A stretch of DNA of 32,944 bases from a virus (Duplodnaviria; Heunggongvirae; Uroviricota; Caudoviricetes): the IMG/VR virus record IMGVR_UViG_2648501787_000007. One strand, given 5' to 3'. A program made the translations under genes and the position numbers. Shown here piece after piece: positions 6,514 to 31,519 of this stretch; position 1 is the first letter of the stretch; the number at the start of each line of letters is the position of its first letter. The notes under the pieces were generated by a model. It had not been told where the DNA came from. It did no database searches and saw nothing but the letters and a program-made list of their open reading frames with translations.

Positions 6514-6940
6514 ACCGGACTCCTCCTGCGATCCCTTCTGATACTGTCATCAGCATTACGTCATCCTCCGTCATGTCTGCCACATCCGGGGAAGCGGGGA
6601 TAACTTCATTCCCGTCCGGGCCAAAGCGGACACCTCCGCCAAGCCCTGCCGCTTTCTGCATCAGCACATCATCTTCAGGCTCTTCGTCAGCCTCGCGCTG
6701 GTTCAGCAAACTGAAATCCAGCGGATGCATATCCGGATCGCTGAAAAACAGGCTGAGCACGGTGTACGTCAGCCCGGAAAAGTGCATATCCAGCAGAACA
6801 TCATGAAAATAATGGGTACTGTAAAAGCGGTGCCAGTCGGCATACTCCGTGGATGACATCCCGGCAAGCATGGCACGCCAGTCGGGTCGCCCCATCTCAC
6901 GCGCCAGTTTCAGGGAAAAACTCAGCTCACCGTCGAACAC
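6506..6940 (-). CDS. T: T-frame part of tail assembly chaperone G-T (made only as a G-T fusion by -1 frameshift)
   Basis: Open frame (M)FDGELSFSLKLAREMGRPDW... starts without ATG directly at the G slippery site; matches lambda T. Confidence 0.85.
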   Translation of the reverse strand: MFDGELSFSLKLAREMGRPDWRAMLAGMSSTEYADWHRFYSTHYFHDVLLDMHFSGLTYTVLSLFFSDPDMHPLDFSLLNQREADEEPEDDVLMQKAAGLGGGVRFGPDGNEVIPASPDVADMTEDDVMLMTVSEGIAGGVRYG

Positions 6941-7359: not shown

Positions 7360-8100
7360 TTAACTGTCGGTGACAGTGATTTCTGCAACCGCAGCAAGTT
7401 CACCATTACCGGATACAACCGGAATGTTGACCTTACCTGCAGCAACGCCTTTCACGGTGATGGTCATACCACTGACCGACACGGTGGCTTTTGTTTTATC
7501 CGCTGACACCGCACGGAAGCTCTTGTCAGTTGCGCCCTCCGGCTGGAATGCCACGGTCAGCGTGGTGCTCTGCCCTTTCACCACCGAGGAGCTGGCAGGC
7601 GTCACGGTCATACCGGTTGCCGCCGTCACCGTACTGCGATCTTCTGCCATTGACGGACGGCCCACATTGGTGATCTTCACCGTACGGGTGATCACTTCCT
7701 TCGCCGTCACCGCCTTACCGATACTGCTGACCCAGCCACGGAACACATCGACCGTGCCGTTCGGGAAGCGGATTTTATAGGCACGGGTATCACCTTTATT
7801 AAACCACACCAGCAGCGCCTGCTGCCCCTGCTCTCCGGGCATCCACGCCAGCGTGAAGCTGGTATCTCCGGCGGATTTTTGCCCCTGTCCGGTCGCGGTC
7901 CAGTCTGCATCTTCATCATCGAGATAACTGTCGTCATAGGACTCAGCGGTCAGTTCGCCGGGCGTCAGGTCTTTAACTTTAGCCAGACGCGACCAGTCAA
8001 CGTCTGAAAGCGGGTTCGCATAAGGGTCACCGTTCCCCTGATAAACCCACAGTGTGGTCCCGGCACCTTTCACCGGCATTACAGGATTTGGTACAGGCAT
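7360..8100 (-). CDS. V: Major tail tube protein V
   Basis: ORF contains [31 protein letters not shown]... matching lambda V (246 aa); start set at the lambda-equivalent Met, ORF track extends 10 codons upstream to 8130. Confidence 0.95.
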
Positions 8101-8107
8101 ATCGTCC

Positions 8108-8503
8108 TCACATTTCATAGGTAATGACATAAGTCAGATCGGCAGAACTCCACAGGCCCGCATCATCGTCGCGCCGGTAGTCATAGCCGCTGGCCACCAT
8201 ACTGGTGATCAAATCTGACAGTGCAGGGATATCGCTCATCACCGGATAAATCCGGGACTCCATCCACGCATCCAGCTCTGAATCCGGCACCTGAGCAGGC
8301 AGGAAAACTTCGATATGCAGCTCCGCCTGCCAGGTATCGCTATCCAGCTCTTCGCCCGTGTATTCAGCGCCGGTGAGATAAACGGCAACTGCCGGAAAAT
8401 CCGCCTCATCAAAAACAGCGGGGCGACCATCAAAAAACGTCGCTCCGGTGTCATGCTTCTCCAGTGCATCCAGTACGGCTGCACGGAGTTCAGTATGTTT
8501 CAT
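8108..8503 (-). CDS. U: Tail tube terminator protein U
   Basis: 131-aa [55 protein letters not shown]..., matches lambda U. Confidence 0.95.
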
Positions 8504-16864: not shown

Positions 16865-17060
16865 TGTTCATTCCACGGACAAAAACAGAGAAAGGAAACG
16901 ACAGAAGCCAAAAAGCCCGTTTTCAGCACCTGTCGTTTCCTTTCTTTTTAGAGGGTGTTTTAAATAAAAACATTAAGTTACGACGAAGAAGAACGGAAAC
17001 GCCTTAAACCGGAAAATTTTCATAAATAGCGAAAACCCGCGCGCCTTCCGCCCCGTAACG
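16865..17060 (-). other. cos: cos region: cosN near 17042-17053 plus cosB terminase-binding region upstream of Nu1
   Basis: Minus strand reads ...CGTTACG GGGCGGAAGGCG CGCGGGTTTTCGCTATTTATGAAAATTTTCCGGTTTAAGGCGTTTCCGTTCTTCTTCG..., nearly identical to the lambda left-end/cosB sequence as recalled. Confidence 0.7.
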
Positions 17061-17232
17061 TTCTGGATCGCCGGAAAGGACCCGAAAATGATAATACATA
17101 TCAATTACACTTAAAGGGGGGGGGTTAATTTGTTCACATCAACACTCCGGACCCCAATGGCCTTCTACTCTGGTTTTGCCATAAAATAGTCCTGATACAT
17201 ATTCATATCAGTTAGTCATATACGGAAAAAAT

Positions 17233-17559
17233 ATGGGCATTACTATTTTCAGCAGTGAAATACAGGATGTTGATAGCGAAGCGATGTACAAGAGTTGGCT
17301 AGCAACCCATTCCGATGGATTCGTTATTAATCTGCTTAAGTCGGCCAGCGGGAAAGGCAGAAAAAATGATGCCAGATTTACGCGGATTCATCGAGCCTCA
17401 TGCAAATCAATCAACCCGTTAATCAGCCCAAAAAATCACGCCGGCTTTACTACTGGCCGATACCAAAAAGTATGTGTTCTTACGCTTGACGAGGCCGAGT
17501 CCACCGCAGGCCAACTAACAGGACTGCCAACCATCCAGAGATGTCATTGGTGTATATAA
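17233..17559 (+). CDS. Hypothetical 108-aa protein in the cos-proximal AT-rich island
   Basis: ORF MGITIFSSEIQDVDSEAMYKSWLATHSDGF...IQRCHWCI; no recognisable family, weak ribosome-binding site. Confidence 0.35.
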   Translation: MGITIFSSEIQDVDSEAMYKSWLATHSDGFVINLLKSASGKGRKNDARFTRIHRASCKSINPLISPKNHAGFTTGRYQKVCVLTLDEAESTAGQLTGLPTIQRCHWCI

Positions 17560-17603
17560 GATACTGCAGTTACGATGGGCCTGCCCATGATGACGGAATA
17601 ATA

Positions 17604-17622
17604 AACCGCCAAAAAGGCGGTT
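17604..17622. terminator. Bidirectional intrinsic terminator-like hairpin between convergent ORFs
   Basis: AACCGCC-AAAAA-GGCGGTT inverted repeat flanked by T-rich tracts on both strands, between the ORF ending 17559 (+) and the ORF ending 17624 (-). Confidence 0.45.
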
Positions 17623-17623
17623 A

Positions 17624-17911
17624 TTAAATTTGACCTCTTGACTTTTCTATTTCATAAAGACCCACTCCATCTCCTGCATCAAGCAATGCATAATATTCAG
17701 GGTCTTTAATTCGATCTATCTGATTTGAAATTTCAAGTAACTCATCCTTTAAAGAATCTACTTCAGAGGCTAATCTTTCATTTTCATCCCTCAGCTCCCT
17801 AACTTCTTGCTGTAAAGACAGTAAGCTCTTCCCGGTTGCTGGAAATCGGTTTATCTCATGCCAGATTGCAACTATTAAAGCTAATACCGCAACGGTTAAA
17901 GATGTCATCAT
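17624..17911 (-). CDS. Hypothetical 95-aa protein, N-terminal transmembrane helix plus coiled coil
   Basis: ORF MMTSLTVAVLALIVAIWHEINRFPATGKSLLSLQQEVRELRDENERLASEVDSLKDELLEISNQIDRIK...; hydrophobic N-terminus then heptad-like charged segment. Confidence 0.4.
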   Translation of the reverse strand: MMTSLTVAVLALIVAIWHEINRFPATGKSLLSLQQEVRELRDENERLASEVDSLKDELLEISNQIDRIKDPEYYALLDAGDGVGLYEIEKSRGQI

Positions 17912-18018
17912 TGGTCTCCCTTTACTTTACAGGATATAGCACCATCACAGACACTCTACGAGATCCTGTGATGGTGAGATTAGAATGGAGGCTGTCTATG
18001 GTGATGCACCTGTGGATG

Positions 18019-18558
18019 TTATGATTTTTCGATCATTTTTATTACATTTTTGGCTGGCTTAATTTTCATCGTATCGCCGGTAGCAAGGTGCACAAGCAAC
18101 ATTAATTTGCGAACGTTGCCGCCCTGTTCCCATATCTTATTTTTCATATCTCTGGCCCAGTCGCCATTAGTATCATTTTGAATAAAGAAAAATGCATATT
18201 CGCCATGCTCAATTTTTTTTGGTAAATCGTCACCAAACCCACCCCCCAGAATCTGAAGTAGTGAGTTTTTTGTACCGAACGTCCATGTTACTGAAGTTAT
18301 AGTTGCGGTTTGAATGCCAACATTTGCAATGTTGATCGTAACTCCAAACGTGCTCACATTTTGGCCTGTGATGCCCCCAAGCGATACTGTTCCTCTTAAC
18401 TTCGGTCGAGGTCGACGGTTAGAAATATATAAAGTCAGGCATACTGCCATAAAGGTTGCAATGCCTGAAAACCACGTTCCTACCATTGACCAAAAAGCCC
18501 ATTCTGCTGTATTTCTAGTGGCAACCAATGATTCGTAAGCTATATAATCTGCGTTCAT
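18019..18558 (-). CDS. Hypothetical 179-aa membrane-anchored protein
   Basis: Internal ATG at 18558 preceded by GAGGTG Shine-Dalgarno; MNADYIAYESLVATRNTAEWAFWSMVGTWFSGIATFMAVCLTLYI... with one predicted TM helix; the ORF-track N-terminal extension to 18762 crosses a GC-rich segment that is probably non-coding. Confidence 0.45.
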   Translation of the reverse strand: MNADYIAYESLVATRNTAEWAFWSMVGTWFSGIATFMAVCLTLYISNRRPRPKLRGTVSLGGITGQNVSTFGVTINIANVGIQTATITSVTWTFGTKNSLLQILGGGFGDDLPKKIEHGEYAFFFIQNDTNGDWARDMKNKIWEQGGNVRKLMLLVHLATGDTMKIKPAKNVIKMIEKS

Positions 18559-18876
18559 CTTCACCTCATTTATCGATGAAGTGATTGTAACTAAAAGCAT
18601 TATCGCAAGCACTAAGTGAATGCCAACCACACTCTCGCAGTAGCTGCGCTCATTCCCTTGAGGCCATGTGTCAGGGGTATCTCGTGAATCCCTCACCACT
18701 AACCGGAAGCTGACTGGCGACCAGCCTGGAGTACCGGTGCGCTTCTTCCCGTTACCCCTCACCAGTACGCCCTCAGCTTTTTACCTGAGACTGGCTACCC
18801 GCAACTTTGGGTATTCGGGGCAGCATCATGACTGCTGCATTGGCGCCACTTGCCACGGTCCGTCCGCTTTACTGCT

Positions 18877-19134: not shown

Positions 19135-19411
19135 TCGCAACAGCCGTTTTGATATCTGTCTGGGTTCTCTGTGACTCCAGTGCAATCTGCTGTTTTGCAT
19201 GCTGGCTAGCCTCCAGAACTGTATTGACGATTTGCAGTGATTGCAGGACGTTATTGGTAATGACAGTTGCCGATTTGGCATTTTGTACAGCCTCATCAGC
19301 ACGTTTCTTTTCGTGCTGATATTTGCTGTAGTAGTGGTTGGCAGACCAGATGAAAGAACCGATGACAGTAACGAGAAAAGCAGCGATAACCAGCTTATAG
19401 CTCAACTTCAT
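19019..19411 (-). CDS. Rz: i-spanin (Rz-like), N-terminal TM helix and coiled coil
   Basis: 130-aa ORF MKLSYKLVIAAFLVTVIGSFIWSANHYYSKYQHEKKRADEAVQNAKSATV... immediately downstream of the endolysin. Confidence 0.8.
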   Translation of the reverse strand: MKLSYKLVIAAFLVTVIGSFIWSANHYYSKYQHEKKRADEAVQNAKSATVITNNVLQSLQIVNTVLEASQHAKQQIALESQRTQTDIKTAVANDDCAARPVPARAAERLRRYADSLRTSSSGTATGESDH

Positions 19412-19871
19412 TTACCACCCCACCAGCCTCTTTAAATCGGGAAATCAGGTCACCGATTTTATGTTCATACTGACCGTAACCTGCTCCGGGTAACGAAGCC
19501 CAGATATTGCTGCAACAGTCGATTGCCTGACGGATGTCACCGCGATCAATCATTAGTAAAGCACCACGCTCCTTAATCTGCTGCAATGCAACAGCATCCT
19601 GGCTTTTAGGAGAGAAGTCTGTCAGCCCTAACTGCTTGCGGTAAGCATCCCACCAGCGTGAAAGAAGTTGATAACGGCCTGCGGCTGTTGATTTGAGTTT
19701 CGGGTTTAGCGTGACAAGTTTTCGAGGGTGATCGGAGTAATCAGTGAAGAGTTCGCCACCGACAATAACGTCATAACCGCGGTTACGTGTCGGTTGTCGC
19801 ACGTTATCCGTTCCTTCTGACCACGCCAACATATCGAGGAAAGCTTTACGCTGAGGATTAAGATTTTGCAT
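19395..19871 (-). CDS. R: Endolysin R (lambda-type lytic transglycosylase)
   Basis: 158-aa ORF ...QRKAFLDMLAWSEGTDN...GYDVIVGGELFTDYSDHPRKLVTLNPKLKSTAAGRYQLLSRWWDAYRKQLGL..., matches lambda R. Confidence 0.95.
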   Translation of the reverse strand: MQNLNPQRKAFLDMLAWSEGTDNVRQPTRNRGYDVIVGGELFTDYSDHPRKLVTLNPKLKSTAAGRYQLLSRWWDAYRKQLGLTDFSPKSQDAVALQQIKERGALLMIDRGDIRQAIDCCSNIWASLPGAGYGQYEHKIGDLISRFKEAGGVVNEVEL

Positions 19872-20175
19872 TTTTCACCCCTGTCAGTCGTTCCCAGAAG
19901 TACGTCAGTGCAACCGAGCCCATCGCACCACTAATCCCCGCTGTCGCGAGAATCATGTAAATACTGAATCCACTTTCGATACTGATCAGGCCACCAATAA
20001 CACCGGTGAATCCCGATACCACTATCTGAGCCAGAGCATTTATCCAGCTCCACGTTGCTTTACTTTGCTTCACATCTATCAGATAGCGGACCAGACCGCC
20101 CCAACCTGCGATGATCAGCAAAACGAGCCAGAACGCTCCGGCAAGGCTCTCTTTTTCGTGCATATGAATAGCCAA
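19858..20175 (-). CDS. Holin (not lambda S by sequence; possible dual start MAIHM)
   Basis: 105-aa ORF with three hydrophobic segments, immediately upstream of and overlapping the endolysin start. Confidence 0.65.
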   Translation of the reverse strand: MAIHMHEKESLAGAFWLVLLIIAGWGGLVRYLIDVKQSKATWSWINALAQIVVSGFTGVIGGLISIESGFSIYMILATAGISGAMGSVALTYFWERLTGVKNAKS

Positions 20176-20391
20176 TGTTTCGCCGCCGACGAAAGGCCGG
20201 GACGCTAATGATTAAAAACTTACATGGGAAATATTGTTATAAACAGTCAACTCAAAATAACTAAAAAATCTTATAACTAAGCGAATGGCCTTCAAAAGCC
20301 GATCCATGCAACTTGCATAAAACGATCTTTATCAATGAGTTACATGTGTGGTTAAATACCATGCTTTAAGGACTAAGAGCATTACCAGCAG

Positions 20392-21195
20392 ATGACAGAA
20401 AAAGATAACATTGGTAAGTTAATTTGGCATATTGCTTGCGATGAATCTGGCATTGATGGGCAACGTTTCTACGGCTTTGGCAGTCTGTGGATGAAGTACC
20501 AACGCCGTGGGGATTTCTGTCAACTAATCAGAGAACTACGTAGCAAACATGGTTTTTTTGAAGAAATAAAATGGCAAAAAGCCCATTCAAAAAGATACTC
20601 TGAATTTTATCTTGAGCTGATCGACTTATTCTTTAGAGTTCCTTGGCTAGCTTTTCATTGTATCGTGGTTGAAAAATCAATAGTAAACAAGACATTTCAT
20701 AATGGGGATTATGACCTGGCAAGGAGAAAGCACTTCACAAATCTCATTACCACAAAAATTAGCTCTGTAATTTCTGCACACCCTGAAAGAGACAGTTACT
20801 TCAGGATTGAAGTTGATCCTATCGCATCTCGTTATAAAAAGGCCGATGAAGAACTAAATGTTATTGCCAATAACATATTGAATAGAAAATTTGGTCGTAA
20901 AGGGATAATCAGCAGTGTAGTGACAAAAGACTCTAAAGCATCTGAAAACATTCAGCTAGCCGATTTTTTCTTAGGTGCGGTTATGTGCGCATATCAAGGA
21001 AAAGCTTCATCTGAAGCCAAAATAAGAGTATCAAACTATGTTGCTTCATATTTAGGCTGGGATCATTTGCAATATGATACATGGCACACTGAGAGAAAAT
21101 TTAATATCTGGTATTTTTATGATAAAACTCGAGGGCCACGAGATATAGAAACTCAAAATGTTAGCTTAAAGTATCCACTTCCCCAAAAGAAATAG
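20392..21195 (+). CDS. DUF3800-like protein (putative RNase H-fold hydrolase), moron gene antisense to the late leader
   Basis: 267-aa ORF MTEKDNIGKLIWHIACDESGIDGQRFYGFGSL... with N-terminal DESG and C-terminal IQLADFFLGAV motifs recalled as typical of DUF3800; AT-rich; opposite strand to all flanking late genes. Confidence 0.45.
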   Translation: MTEKDNIGKLIWHIACDESGIDGQRFYGFGSLWMKYQRRGDFCQLIRELRSKHGFFEEIKWQKAHSKRYSEFYLELIDLFFRVPWLAFHCIVVEKSIVNKTFHNGDYDLARRKHFTNLITTKISSVISAHPERDSYFRIEVDPIASRYKKADEELNVIANNILNRKFGRKGIISSVVTKDSKASENIQLADFFLGAVMCAYQGKASSEAKIRVSNYVASYLGWDHLQYDTWHTERKFNIWYFYDKTRGPRDIETQNVSLKYPLPQKK

Positions 21196-21314
21196 ACGTC
21201 GACCTCTCAGCCGACACGGTTGGAGTCCCAGACCAATTATCGAGTCGAAGTTACCAACTTGGCGGTTATCTTTTGGGAGCCGCCCCTTCATTCCCAAAAC
21301 CTTTATTGCAGAAA

Positions 21315-21343
21315 AATCTATATCCTGGAAATTGGATAGTCAA
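21315..21343 (-). promoter_or_regulatory. Late promoter pR'-like: -35 TTGACT, 17-bp spacer, -10 TAGATT, downstream of the Q-like gene
   Basis: Minus strand TTGACTATCCAATTTCCAGGATATAGATT read directly; resembles the lambda pR' -35 TTGACT as recalled. Confidence 0.5.
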
Positions 21344-21416
21344 CCCTTACGACACCTACGAACAGTTGCACATACAACATTGGCAAAATATCAGATTTAC
21401 ACGGAATATATGCCTT

Positions 21417-22106
21417 TCAATCCAGTTTTGCAATACTTTGCTGTGAAAATGTCGTCTTTTGTTTTGAACGTGTTCTCGTTACAAGCAATAAAGCTTCGCT
21501 ATCAAGCTGTAGAAAAATGTGCTTCATTGCAACCCAGCGTTCAGTAAATGTCTCAGACCAGTTTTTTGATGTCACTCCCACCAGTGATGCCAGCTCCTGG
21601 TATTCATAGGTCTTACGCCCTGCCAGCTCGTTCTTCACATCCTGTGCCGCCAGCCAGATCAACTTCTTCAAACGTTCCAGTGTCTTACCTGCAATTTTTC
21701 TGGTACCCAACAGAGTCTTAAACTCGCTCCATGCCCACTGCGTTATGGTGACCTGATGTTCCCAGCGAACACTTTCGCTGTAACTCCACAGCAACCACGC
21801 TTTCTGATGTTCTTCGAGAGACAGAACCGCGCGGCGCCATGACGAGGTTGAGAACTCAACCTGGCTTACCAGTGCAATGGATGAACCTTTTGCGTACGAC
21901 TGCTTACCGGAAATCGGCGGATTATCCAGCGTAATCATCCTGCCAGTTACCTCATCCAGAATGCGCAGCTTCTTTCGTTTGTATTTACCAGTATCAAATT
22001 GTGCATGCTCCAGCCAGGCTTCAAGCTGTCCTTTCGTTGCTCCGCTCAAATCAGCGGTAGCCACAATGAGTTGCTCGCGGACATACTGTAAATATTGGGT
22101 ATTCAT
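21417..22106 (-). CDS. Putative late-gene antiterminator Q (not lambda Q by sequence)
   Basis: 229-aa ORF MNTQYLQYVREQLIVATADLSGATKGQLEAWLEH... between rusA and a pR'-like promoter and lysis cassette; assignment by position, not by sequence. Confidence 0.55.
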   Translation of the reverse strand: MNTQYLQYVREQLIVATADLSGATKGQLEAWLEHAQFDTGKYKRKKLRILDEVTGRMITLDNPPISGKQSYAKGSSIALVSQVEFSTSSWRRAVLSLEEHQKAWLLWSYSESVRWEHQVTITQWAWSEFKTLLGTRKIAGKTLERLKKLIWLAAQDVKNELAGRKTYEYQELASLVGVTSKNWSETFTERWVAMKHIFLQLDSEALLLVTRTRSKQKTTFSQQSIAKLD

Positions 22107-24098: not shown

Positions 24099-24935
24099 TC
24101 ATTTCAAATTCAGCAGCTCTGAAAAACTATTAACAACATAATCAGGTCTAACATTGGAGAATGCTTTTCTAAGTTGTTCCTCCCTCTCCACATCTGCATC
24201 TTTCCAGTGTGTGATTTTCACTAAAACTTTCCACAATTCAGGTGAAAACTGTCGCCCATAATTAGCCCAAACAGCAGTAACCCCCACAGCTTTAGCCATG
24301 GACATATCTTTAGTTATAGAATCGCCAATGTATACCGCATCTTCAACACTAACTCCTTCAAAAGAACATATGTGCTCAAGCAATTTAGGGTTTGGCTTTG
24401 ACTCAGCGCAGGACAATCTAATTACAAAGTCATCCTTCACAGGTATTTTTTTTGCATTTTTGGGATTCGGGTGGATATTATGAATATCTTCTAATGTATA
24501 AAGATGATCAAAAAAATCAATTATACCAAGCTTATTCAGACGATATAAAGAATTAAACTCCAAAGCTTCAGTATGCCCTACAATTTTTACCCCCCGTTTC
24601 TTCAATAATTCCAGCGTTTCTTTTACAGTAGGATACAACATTAATGTCTGGTTACGTTTTGTGCTAAACGCCTGAAAAACATTAGTAAGTTTTTCCTGCA
24701 AAATCGTTTTATCATTAGTTCCAAAGTAAGATATCACAGATGGTAGCTCTAAAGTAGCAAATGGTTTTTCTGAGTTACCAAACTTCTGATGAATTGTTTT
24801 ATATTCTGACAGGAGCGTATCCAAAGGCACATCAATATCCTTAGATAATTGCTCTGCCATGGCACTAAATGACTGGGAGTAAAAACTCACCCAATCGTAC
24901 AGTGTATTATCCAAATCAGTAATAAGTAATTTCAT
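24099..24935 (-). CDS. HAD-superfamily phosphatase/hydrolase
   Basis: 278-aa ORF with HAD motif I DLDNTL (DxDxT) at residues 7-12 and motif IV-like GDSITKD near the C-terminus; AT-rich; start overlaps the upstream gene stop (ATGA). Confidence 0.8.
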   Translation of the reverse strand: MKLLITDLDNTLYDWVSFYSQSFSAMAEQLSKDIDVPLDTLLSEYKTIHQKFGNSEKPFATLELPSVISYFGTNDKTILQEKLTNVFQAFSTKRNQTLMLYPTVKETLELLKKRGVKIVGHTEALEFNSLYRLNKLGIIDFFDHLYTLEDIHNIHPNPKNAKKIPVKDDFVIRLSCAESKPNPKLLEHICSFEGVSVEDAVYIGDSITKDMSMAKAVGVTAVWANYGRQFSPELWKVLVKITHWKDADVEREEQLRKAFSNVRPDYVVNSFSELLNLK

Positions 24936-26578
24936 AATAAACCTTCAACAATATAAGTAGCCGCCACTTTTTCTCCGCTCTGTTTATCAAGCTTGAAAAA
25001 ATTAAAAGTTAGCTTTTCGCCAGAAAAATCCAGTACGCATGCATAGTTAGCACAATCCTGACTTGGCAATTCCGAACTAACAACTCCTGAACTTCCCAAA
25101 GAAACAATTTGGAATGTATGTTCAGGATTTGAATCCGTCACTGGTTCTAACGGAGATAGTTTTTTTGTTATTGTAATAAAACTACTTCTGTGCATATGAC
25201 CATGCAGAATATAATCAACTTTATGCCTTACTACCCAACGTAATAATCGCTCTGCATCTAATGTTACACTATATCTTGAATCAAGATAGGCATCTTCAAC
25301 TTCATTAATAGAAGTTAGGTGATGGTGAAGCATAGCAATTCTTATAACACCTTTCTTTTTGAGTATATCTCCTCCGCTATCATTCATCCATCCCATAGAT
25401 TTTGCAACATCACTGAGTTGTTGCTCACCGACAAATCCCATGCCCAAAAATGAATCTTTTACTTGTTGTAATACGCATGAGTTCAATGCGGCTATTTCAA
25501 CAACTTTATGGCCACCTAGTAAAAATTTCCTTCCTTGTGATAAATTTTCTTCAGGTTCCCTTTGAAAAAAATCTCGATAAAATTTTATATAATTAAGTTT
25601 ACTTTCGCTATGGTAGTTTTCCGCCAGAATTTTCCATGGTTTATCCGTTACAGGCTTACCAACGATTTTAAAGTACTCATCTTTAGAAACCAGACCTACA
25701 TCGTGATTCCCAGGACAAATAATTATATCATCCGTTGTCAGACTAAGAGAAGAACTAACATCTTTGATAAAATTCAAAGCTTGCTCGAATCCCTCTTTCT
25801 GTGACTGCCACGTCAAATCACCTGAAATAGCCAACCCAGCACATTTACTCCCATTATTATATTTTCCAGCCAACTCCACCACTCGAGAGGATAAACATTT
25901 TAGCTGATCATTATCTTGTGTCGGAAATGCATGTTTCCCATTTCCGCCATCAAAATGAATATCCGAAAGCCAAATTATAAACTCCCCTTTTTTTTGGCTA
26001 TACTTCCGACTGAAATTATAAGGAACATAATGAGATGCTAATGACTCATGCTGTAAATCTTTATCATTTGCAGGTCTAATCTTCCAAATAGTTCTATCTT
26101 GTTTTTTTAATTCAGCTGAAGAAAAGACAATTTTGTTGAAAAGTTGCTCATCTAAATCTTTATTACCTGCAAACAATGCATCCAATGGAATATATGTGAA
26201 TTTTTTGAGGATATCACAAGCATCAATTTCTATAATCTCAGAAACATTTAACCATCCCAGCAACTCATTCTCATTATAATATGCTGGGGTTCTGCGACCA
26301 TCCTTAGGAGATTGCTTTTTTATATCCCCTAAAGCTGACGAGCAGGTATCCTTTAATACAGCGGTATAAAATTTAAGCCGCCCTGAATCAAAAAAATATA
26401 TTTGTTTATTTTTTTCTGCCGCATTTTTTAGTTCCAGTGATGGGAAACGCTCACCAGATTTAGCCCACCACCCCCACCAAACATTCCCTTCTTGGCGAGC
26501 AATGTTATTGTGTTGCTCGATGGTAAATCCTTCACTTTTTCCTAGGTCACGGAACCTAAAAATATAGGTTTCACACAT
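24932..26578 (-). CDS. Calcineurin-like metallophosphoesterase with ~190-aa N-terminal domain of unknown function
   Basis: 548-aa ORF with ordered metallophosphoesterase motifs SDIHFDGG, SGDLTW, GNHD, MLHHH, HGHMH; N-terminal region contains VWWGWW and no recognised motif; AT-rich. Confidence 0.8.
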   Translation of the reverse strand: MCETYIFRFRDLGKSEGFTIEQHNNIARQEGNVWWGWWAKSGERFPSLELKNAAEKNKQIYFFDSGRLKFYTAVLKDTCSSALGDIKKQSPKDGRRTPAYYNENELLGWLNVSEIIEIDACDILKKFTYIPLDALFAGNKDLDEQLFNKIVFSSAELKKQDRTIWKIRPANDKDLQHESLASHYVPYNFSRKYSQKKGEFIIWLSDIHFDGGNGKHAFPTQDNDQLKCLSSRVVELAGKYNNGSKCAGLAISGDLTWQSQKEGFEQALNFIKDVSSSLSLTTDDIIICPGNHDVGLVSKDEYFKIVGKPVTDKPWKILAENYHSESKLNYIKFYRDFFQREPEENLSQGRKFLLGGHKVVEIAALNSCVLQQVKDSFLGMGFVGEQQLSDVAKSMGWMNDSGGDILKKKGVIRIAMLHHHLTSINEVEDAYLDSRYSVTLDAERLLRWVVRHKVDYILHGHMHRSSFITITKKLSPLEPVTDSNPEHTFQIVSLGSSGVVSSELPSQDCANYACVLDFSGEKLTFNFFKLDKQSGEKVAATYIVEGLL

Positions 26579-30364: not shown

Positions 30365-30991
30365 ATGATCGTTCAATCCACATCGCTTCGAGCAAGGGAG
30401 CTTGAGGCGCATTTGAATTGGCTAATTAATACATTCACAGATGAAAAAGAATCTGTGTTAATGCTTCAAGATAAGCCATCCGAAGAAACGATGAAAAAAA
30501 TGGAGAAAGCACCAGCCAAGAGCATAAAAATTGGTGGATTACCCATTACTTCAGAAGTTAAAAATTCAGAGAACCAAACACCCTCCTTTTCAAATGGTTC
30601 GGTGAAGACAATAAAATACCGCCCAATAGGGAAAGGAGGTGCGCTACTAAAAGCATTTTTTGGCGATAACTGGGCAAATGATATAAACATTAAAGATTCA
30701 TTAGATGAGGCCAATTTACAAGTAAGCCTCGAGATTACATACTTCAGAAAAACAAATGATAGCGGTCAAGCTGTTATAGACAGTATTGCTACCTCACTAC
30801 GACATCTAGATGAGGATGATATTAGCATCAAACTTCAAGGCGGTGGGGAAATAACGGGAAAAGAGATAAAATTATCCGGAAAAATTAGCGTTGAACATAA
30901 CAATGGCATTATTGATGAAAATGATTTATTCTTAAAAATGCATAAGTGGCTGTTCTCAAAACTTGATGCCGGAGAATTGGTTGCAAAATAA
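30365..30991 (+). CDS. Hypothetical cytoplasmic protein in the rexA position; frame is open upstream to 30152 and may be a frameshifted ~280-aa gene starting at ATG 30148
   Basis: 208-aa ORF MIVQSTSLRARELEAHLNWLINTFTDEKESVLMLQDK...; AT-rich; no Shine-Dalgarno before 30365; 71 stop-free in-frame codons upstream. Confidence 0.5.
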   Translation: MIVQSTSLRARELEAHLNWLINTFTDEKESVLMLQDKPSEETMKKMEKAPAKSIKIGGLPITSEVKNSENQTPSFSNGSVKTIKYRPIGKGGALLKAFFGDNWANDINIKDSLDEANLQVSLEITYFRKTNDSGQAVIDSIATSLRHLDEDDISIKLQGGGEITGKEIKLSGKISVEHNNGIIDENDLFLKMHKWLFSKLDAGELVAK

Positions 30992-31012: not shown

Positions 31013-31519
31013 ATGAAATCGAACATCATCCACCTTATTGGTATGTTGGTCTTCTATGTTGCTGGTTACTTTTTGTTCAAGTCAGCATTGGGCTATATTA
31101 CACCGGGTGTTGTCCTAACAGCTCCGTGGGCTGTGGTTGGACTCATGCAATTGCCATTATCATATTGTATACAAGCCATTTTTAAGGCAAATGAGGCCAA
31201 TGACCACTCGTCTTTAACCCCTAGTGAGGTTAGGCGATTAGTGCCAATAGTCAAATCCAAGAGACTGAAATTGGTTTTATTATTAGCTTTCTATGTATTT
31301 TCAACTTTGTTTGTAATCTTGGGGTTAATAGCAAGCACAAATGATCAAGCCCTACTCTTCAGGGTCTTAAAAATTTCAGGTGGATTACTCTTTATTTCTC
31401 TCTATACCAGTGTATTCGTTCATAAAATAATGGTTGAGCTTCAAGAGTTTAAAGCGTTATTAAACCGAAGAGAATCAGAGAAGAAGGAAAGAGAGTCACT
31501 CCTTGATAGATTAAAATGA
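31013..31519 (+). CDS. Hypothetical 4-TM membrane protein in the rexB position
   Basis: 168-aa ORF with four hydrophobic segments and a charged C-terminal tail (RRESEKKERESLLDRLK); strong AGGAGG Shine-Dalgarno; 21 nt after the preceding ORF. Confidence 0.65.
   Translation: MKSNIIHLIGMLVFYVAGYFLFKSALGYITPGVVLTAPWAVVGLMQLPLSYCIQAIFKANEANDHSSLTPSEVRRLVPIVKSKRLKLVLLLAFYVFSTLFVILGLIASTNDQALLFRVLKISGGLLFISLYTSVFVHKIMVELQEFKALLNRRESEKKERESLLDRLK

Follow-up and report, generated by a model that had tools for sequence, protein, structure and literature searches.

The window analysed here is the whole of IMG/VR record IMGVR_UViG_2648501787_000007 (32,944 nucleotides), a lambdoid prophage integrated adjoining icd in Escherichia coli. 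Its antiterminator gene Q and its holin gene are both located on the minus strand, and between them lies an AT-rich cassette of two convergent genes: a plus-strand gene for a protein of the DUF3800 family, and a minus-strand gene which, judged from comparative evidence, encodes a structured small RNA, runs in the direction of late transcription and stands directly 3' of the late promoter pR'. The cassette was acquired horizontally and has taken the place of the terminator part of the late leader in a lambdoid prophage of the phage 82 type. The Q-to-holin stretch (2.4 kb searched) has a 100% match in E. coli FHI_NMBU_03. The following features of the cassette and of its joint with the prophage have been identified:

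20320 to 20357, plus strand: conserved upstream block, with TATCAAnnnnTTA at 20330-20342 (IHF-consensus-like), TG-n-TTAAAT at 20349-20357 (extended -10-like) and TTATCA at 20329-20334 (possible -35)
20392 to 21195, plus strand: DUF3800 protein gene, ATG start, 267 amino acids (PF12686, predicted RNase H2-like fold)
21186 to 21308, minus strand: structured small RNA gene, convergent with the DUF3800 gene, about 110-120 nucleotides between its predicted ends
21315 to 21343, minus strand: TTGACT-17-TAGATT, most likely the promoter of the small RNA
21373 to 21433, minus strand: late promoter pR', phage 82 type, together with the pause and the Q-loading region (-35 TTGCAA at 21433-21428, -10 TATATT at 21410-21405, spacer of 17, +1 at 21398)
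20209 to 21372, no strand assigned: segment replaced in comparison with the 'empty' phage PhiR47_2, 1164 base pairs (bp) instead of a 232-bp leader

The open reading frame (ORF) at 20392-21195 had been described, in an earlier reading made from the letters without database searches (the sequence-only reading), as a 267-residue plus-strand ORF with DESG and QLADFF motifs and a likely member of DUF3800. Both motifs are present, within IACDESGIDG and NIQLADFFLG, and the Pfam DUF3800 profile (PF12686) matches residues 16-197 with 42.6 bits against a gathering cut-off of 21 (E 1.3e-10). The ORF does not occur by chance, because 498 homologues were found at E<=1e-5 and phrog_3732 matches the protein from end to end (1e-136); by this sequence evidence it is a coding gene, as had been supposed. 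Among the best 120 of the 498 homologues the identity ranges from 100% to 53%, and nearly all have a length of about 260-290 residues. RefSeq annotates the gene as 'DUF3800 domain-containing protein', and the product is an ordinary member of that family. Its invariant residues are D17 E18 S19 G20, E58, D142, D152 E153, D180, Q188 and D191, among which are all of the candidate acidic residues (D17, E18, E58, D142, D152, E153, D180 and D191). The signature motifs of the family, an N-terminal DE and a C-terminal QxxD (PMC7736814), correspond to D17-E18 and Q188-L-A-D191 and are unchanged in 28 homologues. The fold is predicted to be RNase H-like, more precisely RNase H2-like, in agreement with the sequence-only reading and with earlier proposals for DUF3800 (PMC7736814, PMC10910872). 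No established function of DUF3800 was found in the literature. Among defence models, the PADLOC candidate PDC-M04A (PDLC04353) matches the protein at 7.8e-35. A small protein partner was also considered; phages Chuche and PHL101 have ORFs of about 87 residues ahead of their homologues, but these ORFs are mutually unrelated and absent from PADLOC, and neither flank of the DUF3800 gene in the window holds a credible small ORF. The guanine-plus-cytosine (GC) content is 0.36-0.38 over the DUF3800 ORF versus about 0.49-0.55 for Q and for the nin and lysis genes on either side, which bears out the AT-rich character reported for this DNA.

Upstream of the gene, TATCAAnnnnTTA followed by TGnTTAAAT is kept across Enterobacterales loci despite differing surrounding sequence. 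The first element is presumed to fit the IHF consensus WATCAANNNNTTR, and the second is taken as a lookalike of an extended -10; together they may be inferred to form the promoter of the DUF3800 gene and a putative IHF site. By eye, the consensus fits in 11 of 13 Enterobacterales loci, and the element sits at the location expected for a -35.

On the opposite strand, the sequence-only reading had placed pR' at 21343-21315. This is the conserved position of the small RNA promoter, corresponding to +56 to +84 of the pR' transcript, and the true pR' with its Q-loading site lies at 21433-21373, the promoter itself (21433-21405) overlapping the Q stop codon. Its pause region (minus strand) consists of TG at +6/+7, a -10-like TATTTT at +9 to +14 (21390-21385), GCC at +15 to +17, an AT-rich section at +18 to +25 and a U at +25 (21374). 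The published account of the phage 82 pR' lists an extended -10-like pause element, delimited by insertions made at +9 and +15, then GCC as the discriminator (+15-17), AT-rich sequence over +18-25 and a pause at +25/26 whose terminal base is U (PMC5001585), the native pause being at +25 (PMC4914094). Compared by text description, the window agrees with every one of these properties.

The extent of the replacement is given by phage PhiR47_2, in which the same Q and the same holin are only 309 bp apart and no cassette is present. In a blastn comparison, homology to PhiR47_2 runs from Q to 21373 (+26 of the pR' transcript) and resumes at 20208. Since the homology ends at 21373, the mosaic joint lies exactly 3' of the Q-loading site. 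The cassette is a replacement and not a simple insertion: its 1164 bp replace 232 bp of leader, which in PhiR47_2 contain two canonical terminators. A direct-repeat or att-like reading of the TTATC/TATCAAC motifs common to both cassette ends was dropped as too weak.

Promoter-like matches in the Q-to-holin region number 2, against 4.2 expected from shuffles, and no further minus-strand promoter-like sites were found ahead of the holin. Because no other such site is available, Q-modified polymerase must cross the DUF3800 gene antisense to reach the holin. In this respect the sequence-only reading, which set the gene antisense in the slot between Q and holin and had late transcription read through it, was right.

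The second gene of the cassette became apparent from the DNA beyond the first. Among homologues in unrelated contexts, the roughly 105 nucleotides directly 3' of the DUF3800 stop codon are 77-96% identical, whereas the proteins of the same loci are only 64-87% identical. A covariance model built from 14 sequences matches the window at 21193-21303 with 111 bits, and the predicted RNA (minus strand) is composed of the following elements:

21299-21292 with 21278-21271: helix P5
GGCGG 21284-21280 with CCGCC 21265-21261: helix P4, forming an H-type pseudoknot with P5
21258-21254 with 21223-21219: helix P3
within 21250-21227: hairpin P2
21215-21198: hairpin P1, with a GAGA loop, followed by a U-rich tract to about 21186

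Compensatory changes are found in one hairpin as GTCG/CGAC, GCCG/CGGC, GCCA/TGGC and GTAG/CTAC, and in a second hairpin as GAC/GTC, GGC/GCC and GTC/GAC. In two alignments, 97.6% and 99.1% of the paired cells are complementary, 13 of 23 and 11 of 23 pairs show changes on both sides (0-2 and 0-6 in slid controls), and none of 500 shuffles equalled the observed covariation, figures that lean towards the model because the alignments were fitted to it. Helix P5 is absent from the model, yet it occurs in many complementary versions: UUUUGGGA/UCCCAAAA, UUUUGGGG/CCCCGAAA, UUGAGAUG/CAUCUCAA, CACAAAG/CUUUGUG, CACGAAG/CUUCGUG, UCAGG/CCUGA and UCCAG/CUGGA. Inside it is a GGCGG that never varies, and the partner CCGCC follows further 3', as in an H-type pseudoknot. 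The element was also considered as a protein-coding sequence and rejected, as its length is not constant modulo 3 and an open frame is missing from some copies; no relic of a transfer RNA or transfer-messenger RNA was found in it. A search of Rfam 15 gave no match at the gathering threshold over the whole window, no DUF3800 family or other relevant one at E<=10 within 19900-21700 and none in 25 related loci.

Watson-Crick covariation suits either strand, and the plus strand offers two invariant terminal G.U pairs, so the element might be read as a 3' untranslated region (UTR) of the DUF3800 mRNA with a cis-regulatory or stabilizing role. Wobble pairs specific to the minus strand are, however, commoner and lie inside the helices (G.U and U.G pairs, 44 of 44 distinct sequences), and the terminal loop is of the GNRA type on the minus strand only, in all 54 sequences (GAGA, GUGA, GAAA, GGAA, GGGA). 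The promoter and the U-tract, too, belong to the minus strand alone, and a plus-strand UTR carries very slight probability indeed.

The promoter is conserved in position. A sigma-70 promoter (at least 8 of 12 consensus positions) whose -10 ends 5-15 nucleotides before the RNA is present in 15 of 18 non-redundant loci, against 2.6 +/- 1.4 in shuffles (maximum 7) and 0-1 at other offsets; in the window, TTGACT-17-TAGATT most likely drives the small RNA, as far as sequence can tell. At locus L116 the order is a lambda-type pR' with AACGATGGGTTAATTCGC, a terminator, TTGACT-17-TAGATT and the RNA. A different arrangement was observed in the IMG/VR contigs L143-L153, L161 and L162, where the RNA abuts the U-tract of tR' and has no promoter of its own, and where only read-through from pR' could make the RNA.

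The terminator-shaped P1, located where a terminator is needed, invites a simpler view, namely that DUF3800 is a moron acting alone and the 3' element a mere insulator or terminator against convergent transcription; the group L143-L149, in which the element has no promoter, fits that view as well. A terminator needs about 30-40 nucleotides and here about 105 are conserved, along with four extra helices, a pseudoknot that covaries, single-stranded stretches that never vary and a promoter kept in position, which makes a solo moron distinctly unlikely. A moron is an accessory transcription unit in a phage genome with its own promoter and terminator. The gene proposed as a moron in the sequence-only reading is present in the window and missing from PhiR47_2, is low in GC and has an upstream block that may hold its own promoter, but no plus-strand terminator was found for it; it is not a lone gene, as DUF3800 travels with the convergent RNA gene.

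The overlap of the two genes raises another alternative. The U-rich tract after P1 is complementary to the stop codon of DUF3800 and to the Lys-rich codons at its C-terminal end, convergence over the stop codon is rigid (88 of 88 loci), and no plus-strand terminator-like site was found 3' of the ORF, so that the mRNA should run through the RNA gene. This would suit control of the type I kind, in which the RNA pairs with the 3' end of the DUF3800 mRNA and causes its degradation or termination without any RNA-protein complex. Such pairing has no need of a pseudoknot, a GNRA loop or invariant wobble pairs, and complementarity to the 5' region of the mRNA is missing: duplexes of the RNA with the DUF3800 5' UTR or ribosome-binding site were tried and had energies no better than shuffles (z -2.2 to +1.7). 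Antisense pairing in cis as the whole explanation is unlikely, though the rigidity of the overlap suggests that a cis component exists as well.

In the window, the RNA may also serve as the end of the late leader. P1 (-8.4 to -9.9 kcal/mol), followed by GUCUAUUUCUUUU, is the sole hairpin with a U-tract between +26 and the ORF and the only site resembling an intrinsic terminator ahead of the holin, and the terminator of the RNA may thus stand in for tR'. This is a minority arrangement: 12 of the 16 Q-slot clusters have a canonical GC-rich tR', stronger than P1, in the space from Q to the RNA.

The RNA was found in 88 loci, always at the same position and strand and overlapping the DUF3800 stop codon. 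These comprise 17 Enterobacterales and 4 Pasteurellaceae genome or phage loci and 67 of 75 IMG/VR viral loci, the other 8 being mostly cut at a contig end. An RNA-like sequence is present in 88 of 5426 complete E. coli genomes, with an annotated DUF3800 gene at 28 of 30 among the matches listed. The mobile unit consists of (i) the upstream block, (ii) the ORF and (iii) the convergent RNA gene, and 33-37 distinct flank contexts of it were counted. The loci have no conserved protein neighbour in common. A recognisable Q gene follows just past the RNA in 55 of 88 loci, always on the strand of the RNA, and recognisable lysis genes on the far side are antisense to DUF3800 in 34 of 34, but these orientation counts are inflated by shared ancestry, the conservative number being the 16 of 33 distinct flank clusters that bear Q. 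The Q proteins belong to three Pfam families (PF06323, PF06530 and PF03589), and the holins in the slot are of the LydA type, holin_8, lambda S type and P21 S type.

So strong and orientation-specific a tie to the Q-to-lysis slot could mean that the module serves late-gene control of the phage, for example by RNase H-like processing of the leader or of R-loops, and has no part in defence or addiction. The cassette nevertheless turns up beyond lambdoid late leaders, namely in P2-like phages, in a P4-like island and in chromosomal islands, a Q gene was not recognised in 17 of 33 flank clusters, and the close relative PhiR47_2 does without the cassette; a role in late control is very improbable. 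The contexts outside the slot include the P2-like phages Chuche and PHL101 (in PHL101 the gene has the same direction as CI), the end of a P2/186-like Salmonella prophage, islands with DUF4062 and a P4-like island at ssrA, where the cassette adjoins an AAA_15/21 ATPase pair. A Vibrio homologue adjoins a TIR protein and has no match to the RNA model.

Further observations were made at individual loci. The block Q-RNA-DUF3800-holin recurs in L089 (NZ_CP172337.1), a mosaic phage with an HK97-type head and a contractile tail whose 44.8-kb circular record was assembled as a 'plasmid'. Avs2 is encoded there too, as are Iss, which is homologous to bor and lies antisense past Rz, and, beyond the repressor, a Panacea-domain protein. 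Partial E. coli matches, examined as possible other contents of the slot, proved to be prophage remnants truncated by IS1. In L003 and L004 (E. coli J31 and T16R), decayed remnants adjoining icd and trkG, IS1 truncated the DUF3800 gene or removed all beyond the upstream region and left the lysis genes stranded. The Salmonella locus L007 holds the Hfq-binding small RNAs STnc490 and IsrN at 7368-7491 and 8304-8446, about 0.5-1.5 kb past the cassette and distinct from the DUF3800-linked RNA at 6804-6911. In Colwellia, Ferrimonas and Psychromonas (L026, L027, L031, L035, L036 and L075), the DUF3800 stop codon is followed by another conserved element of about 110 nucleotides, for example UAACGCC..GGCUAAAAU..GAGGCACGA, with a long and apparently covarying hairpin. 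It is detected neither by the present covariance model nor by Rfam and may represent another class of DUF3800-linked RNA.

The operation of the cassette may be pictured as follows. Q loads at a promoter-proximal pause and renders the polymerase resistant to terminators. In the lysogen, DUF3800 would be transcribed from its own conserved upstream block, and the RNA would have two sources, its own promoter and the constitutive pR' transcripts, with transcription from either halting at the terminator of the RNA. For Stx phages it is reported that pR' is constitutive, that its transcripts end early in the lysogen and that the terminated RNA can be functional (PMC7547250). On induction, Q82 would load at the +25 pause, and the polymerase would pass the terminator and go on for about 1 kb, antisense to DUF3800, before reaching the holin. 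Read-through would turn DUF3800 off by collision and antisense RNA, while the RNA-containing transcript became abundant. That the gene is expressed in the lysogen and silenced in lytic growth, as the sequence-only reading had it, is a reasonable inference. The structured RNA would bind or restrain, or else direct, its partner nuclease, and the fixed orientation would disarm the module during the lytic growth of the phage.

As to function, the hypothesis offered is a nuclease module under RNA control that acts in defence or addiction. It is based on (i) the mobile and defence-island contexts; (ii) the match to PDC-M04A, an untested candidate; (iii) the association of further DUF3800 proteins with structured RNAs, with retrons and with Cas12a2/a3 loci; and (iv) the single orientation in late leaders. 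Taken as a whole, the anatomy and operation described above together with an RNA-controlled nuclease module provide the best explanation, with a probability of roughly 0.45. Several points besides the shared ancestry behind the orientation counts weigh against it. The -10-like hexamer of DUF3800 does not have the usual A at position 2. The folding energy of the single RNA sequence is ordinary (z = 0.12), and the case for the RNA for that reason depends on the comparative evidence. The P1 terminator is modest, with an interrupted U-tract, and the promoterless RNA of one phage group misfits a simple model in which the RNA is made in the lysogen. PADLOC entries with the PDC prefix are untested defence candidates (bioRxiv 10.1101/2024.01.29.577857), and no PDC-M04 partner protein was found among the scanned neighbours or the other accessory genes of the window.

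A bolder version can be formulated, in which the cassette is a new RNA-governed nuclease module, defensive or addictive, with Q antitermination as its switch: it would be armed in the lysogen, and read-through would both silence the gene and flood the cell with the restraining RNA, leaving the phage self-immune. This version is rather unlikely. If true, it would explain the DUF3800-associated RNAs, a question open since 2017. The lambdoid version in E. coli would make a tractable test system, as Q82 and pR'82 are among the antitermination systems best characterised in vitro. The oriented slot suggests a general way for temperate phages to carry a potentially self-harmful gene, namely with its shut-off wired to late transcription. 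In practical terms, current annotation overlooks the RNA gene, and a reading of sequence alone can take the RNA promoter for pR'.

The genes surrounding the cassette are those of a lambdoid prophage: on the minus strand NinB, YbcO, RusA, YlcG and Q precede the holin, endolysin and Rz genes, and head and tail genes resembling those of lambda come next. Q has 98% nucleotide identity with the Q gene of phage 82 (X92588). The genes nearest to the cassette are:

21417 to 22106, minus strand: antiterminator Q of the phage 82 type (Pfam PF06323, Phage_antiter_Q, 8e-95)
19858 to 20175, minus strand: holin of the LydA type, first late gene (Pfam PF16083, 8e-22; phrog_785; RefSeq start 20163)
19395 to 19871, minus strand, downstream of the holin: endolysin, then Rz/Rz1

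Other AT-rich regions were observed in the window. The nin region contains a two-gene cassette at 24099-26578 (minus strand, GC 0.33-0.39), which looks like another accessory module of the defence type. One gene specifies a hydrolase of the HAD family (PADLOC model 'Hydrolase', 5e-57), the other a protein with PUA-like and calcineurin-like metallophosphoesterase parts and weak matches to the PADLOC models 'Effector/Endonuclease' and PDC-S60. Two ORFs at 30365-30991 and 31013-31519 (both plus strand), with zero Pfam or PADLOC matches, lie directly 3' of the cI-like repressor gene and in its direction, a position like that of rexAB; the otherwise identical prophage of FHI_NMBU_03 has a 341-amino-acid gene in place of this pair. 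An island at 16866-18762, between the small terminase subunit and Rz and in the position of lambda bor, contains ORFs at 17624-17911 (minus strand, coiled-coil-like), 18019-18558 (minus strand) and 17233-17559 (plus strand), none of which was assigned to a family with confidence.

Among known systems, type III toxin-antitoxin pairs such as ToxIN consist of a nuclease held in check by an adjacent structured, pseudoknotted RNA and are carried on mobile elements. The likeness to the present cassette is one of functional analogy only: the RNA of the window is single-copy and has no tandem repeats, it is convergent and located 3' of the protein gene, and the protein has another fold. Compared to type 2 RNase H (RNase HII / H2A), the protein shares about 13% identity and possesses at its C-terminal end some 70 extra residues that are strongly conserved; for DUF3800, a rearranged catalytic layout relative to these enzymes has been described (PMC10910872, PMC7736814). 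The protein fits the component A model of PADLOC PDC-M04, but PDC-M04 is a multi-gene system whose partner was neither found here nor conserved in the other loci.

DUF3800 genes have been linked to 11 RNA motifs, DUF3800-I to -XI (Weinberg et al. 2017, PMC5737381), and to type VII retrons (PMC7736814); the literature also ties them to Cas12a2/a3 loci. Like the present element, the Weinberg motifs are structured RNAs linked to a DUF3800 gene; they may lie on the other strand, and an intrinsic terminator often comes after them. In contrast to them, the RNA of the window has a fixed convergent position over the stop codon and matches no Rfam 15 family, a comparison that extends to those motifs held in Rfam, of which DUF3800-I and -IX were confirmed to be present; motifs among II-XI outside Rfam were not compared with the window RNA. 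Judged against Rfam, what appears to be new is (i) a class of DUF3800-linked RNA without an Rfam match; (ii) the cassette as a protein-plus-RNA pair; (iii) its orientation-fixed recurrence in the Q-to-lysis slot with three families of Q; and (iv) the variant of the window, in which the terminator of the RNA would replace tR'.

Accessory genes are familiar in lambdoid late operons, where stx occupies the slot between Q and S and lambda bor lies antisense to late transcription. With both, the DUF3800 gene shares an accessory position inside the late transcription unit and a foreign base composition; with bor it shares the antisense orientation and, presumably, expression in the lysogen; with stx it shares the location between pR' and the holin. 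Unlike both, the window has a protein-plus-RNA cassette that replaces tR' instead of following it, and that is kept in a single orientation with three families of Q. The small RNA StxS of Stx phages (PMC7547250) likewise arises from a late leader through constitutive pR' transcription that ends early in the lysogen. StxS is a native leader RNA that acts by base-pairing, whereas the leader of the window would contain an imported structured RNA gene with its own promoter and a link to a predicted nuclease gene.

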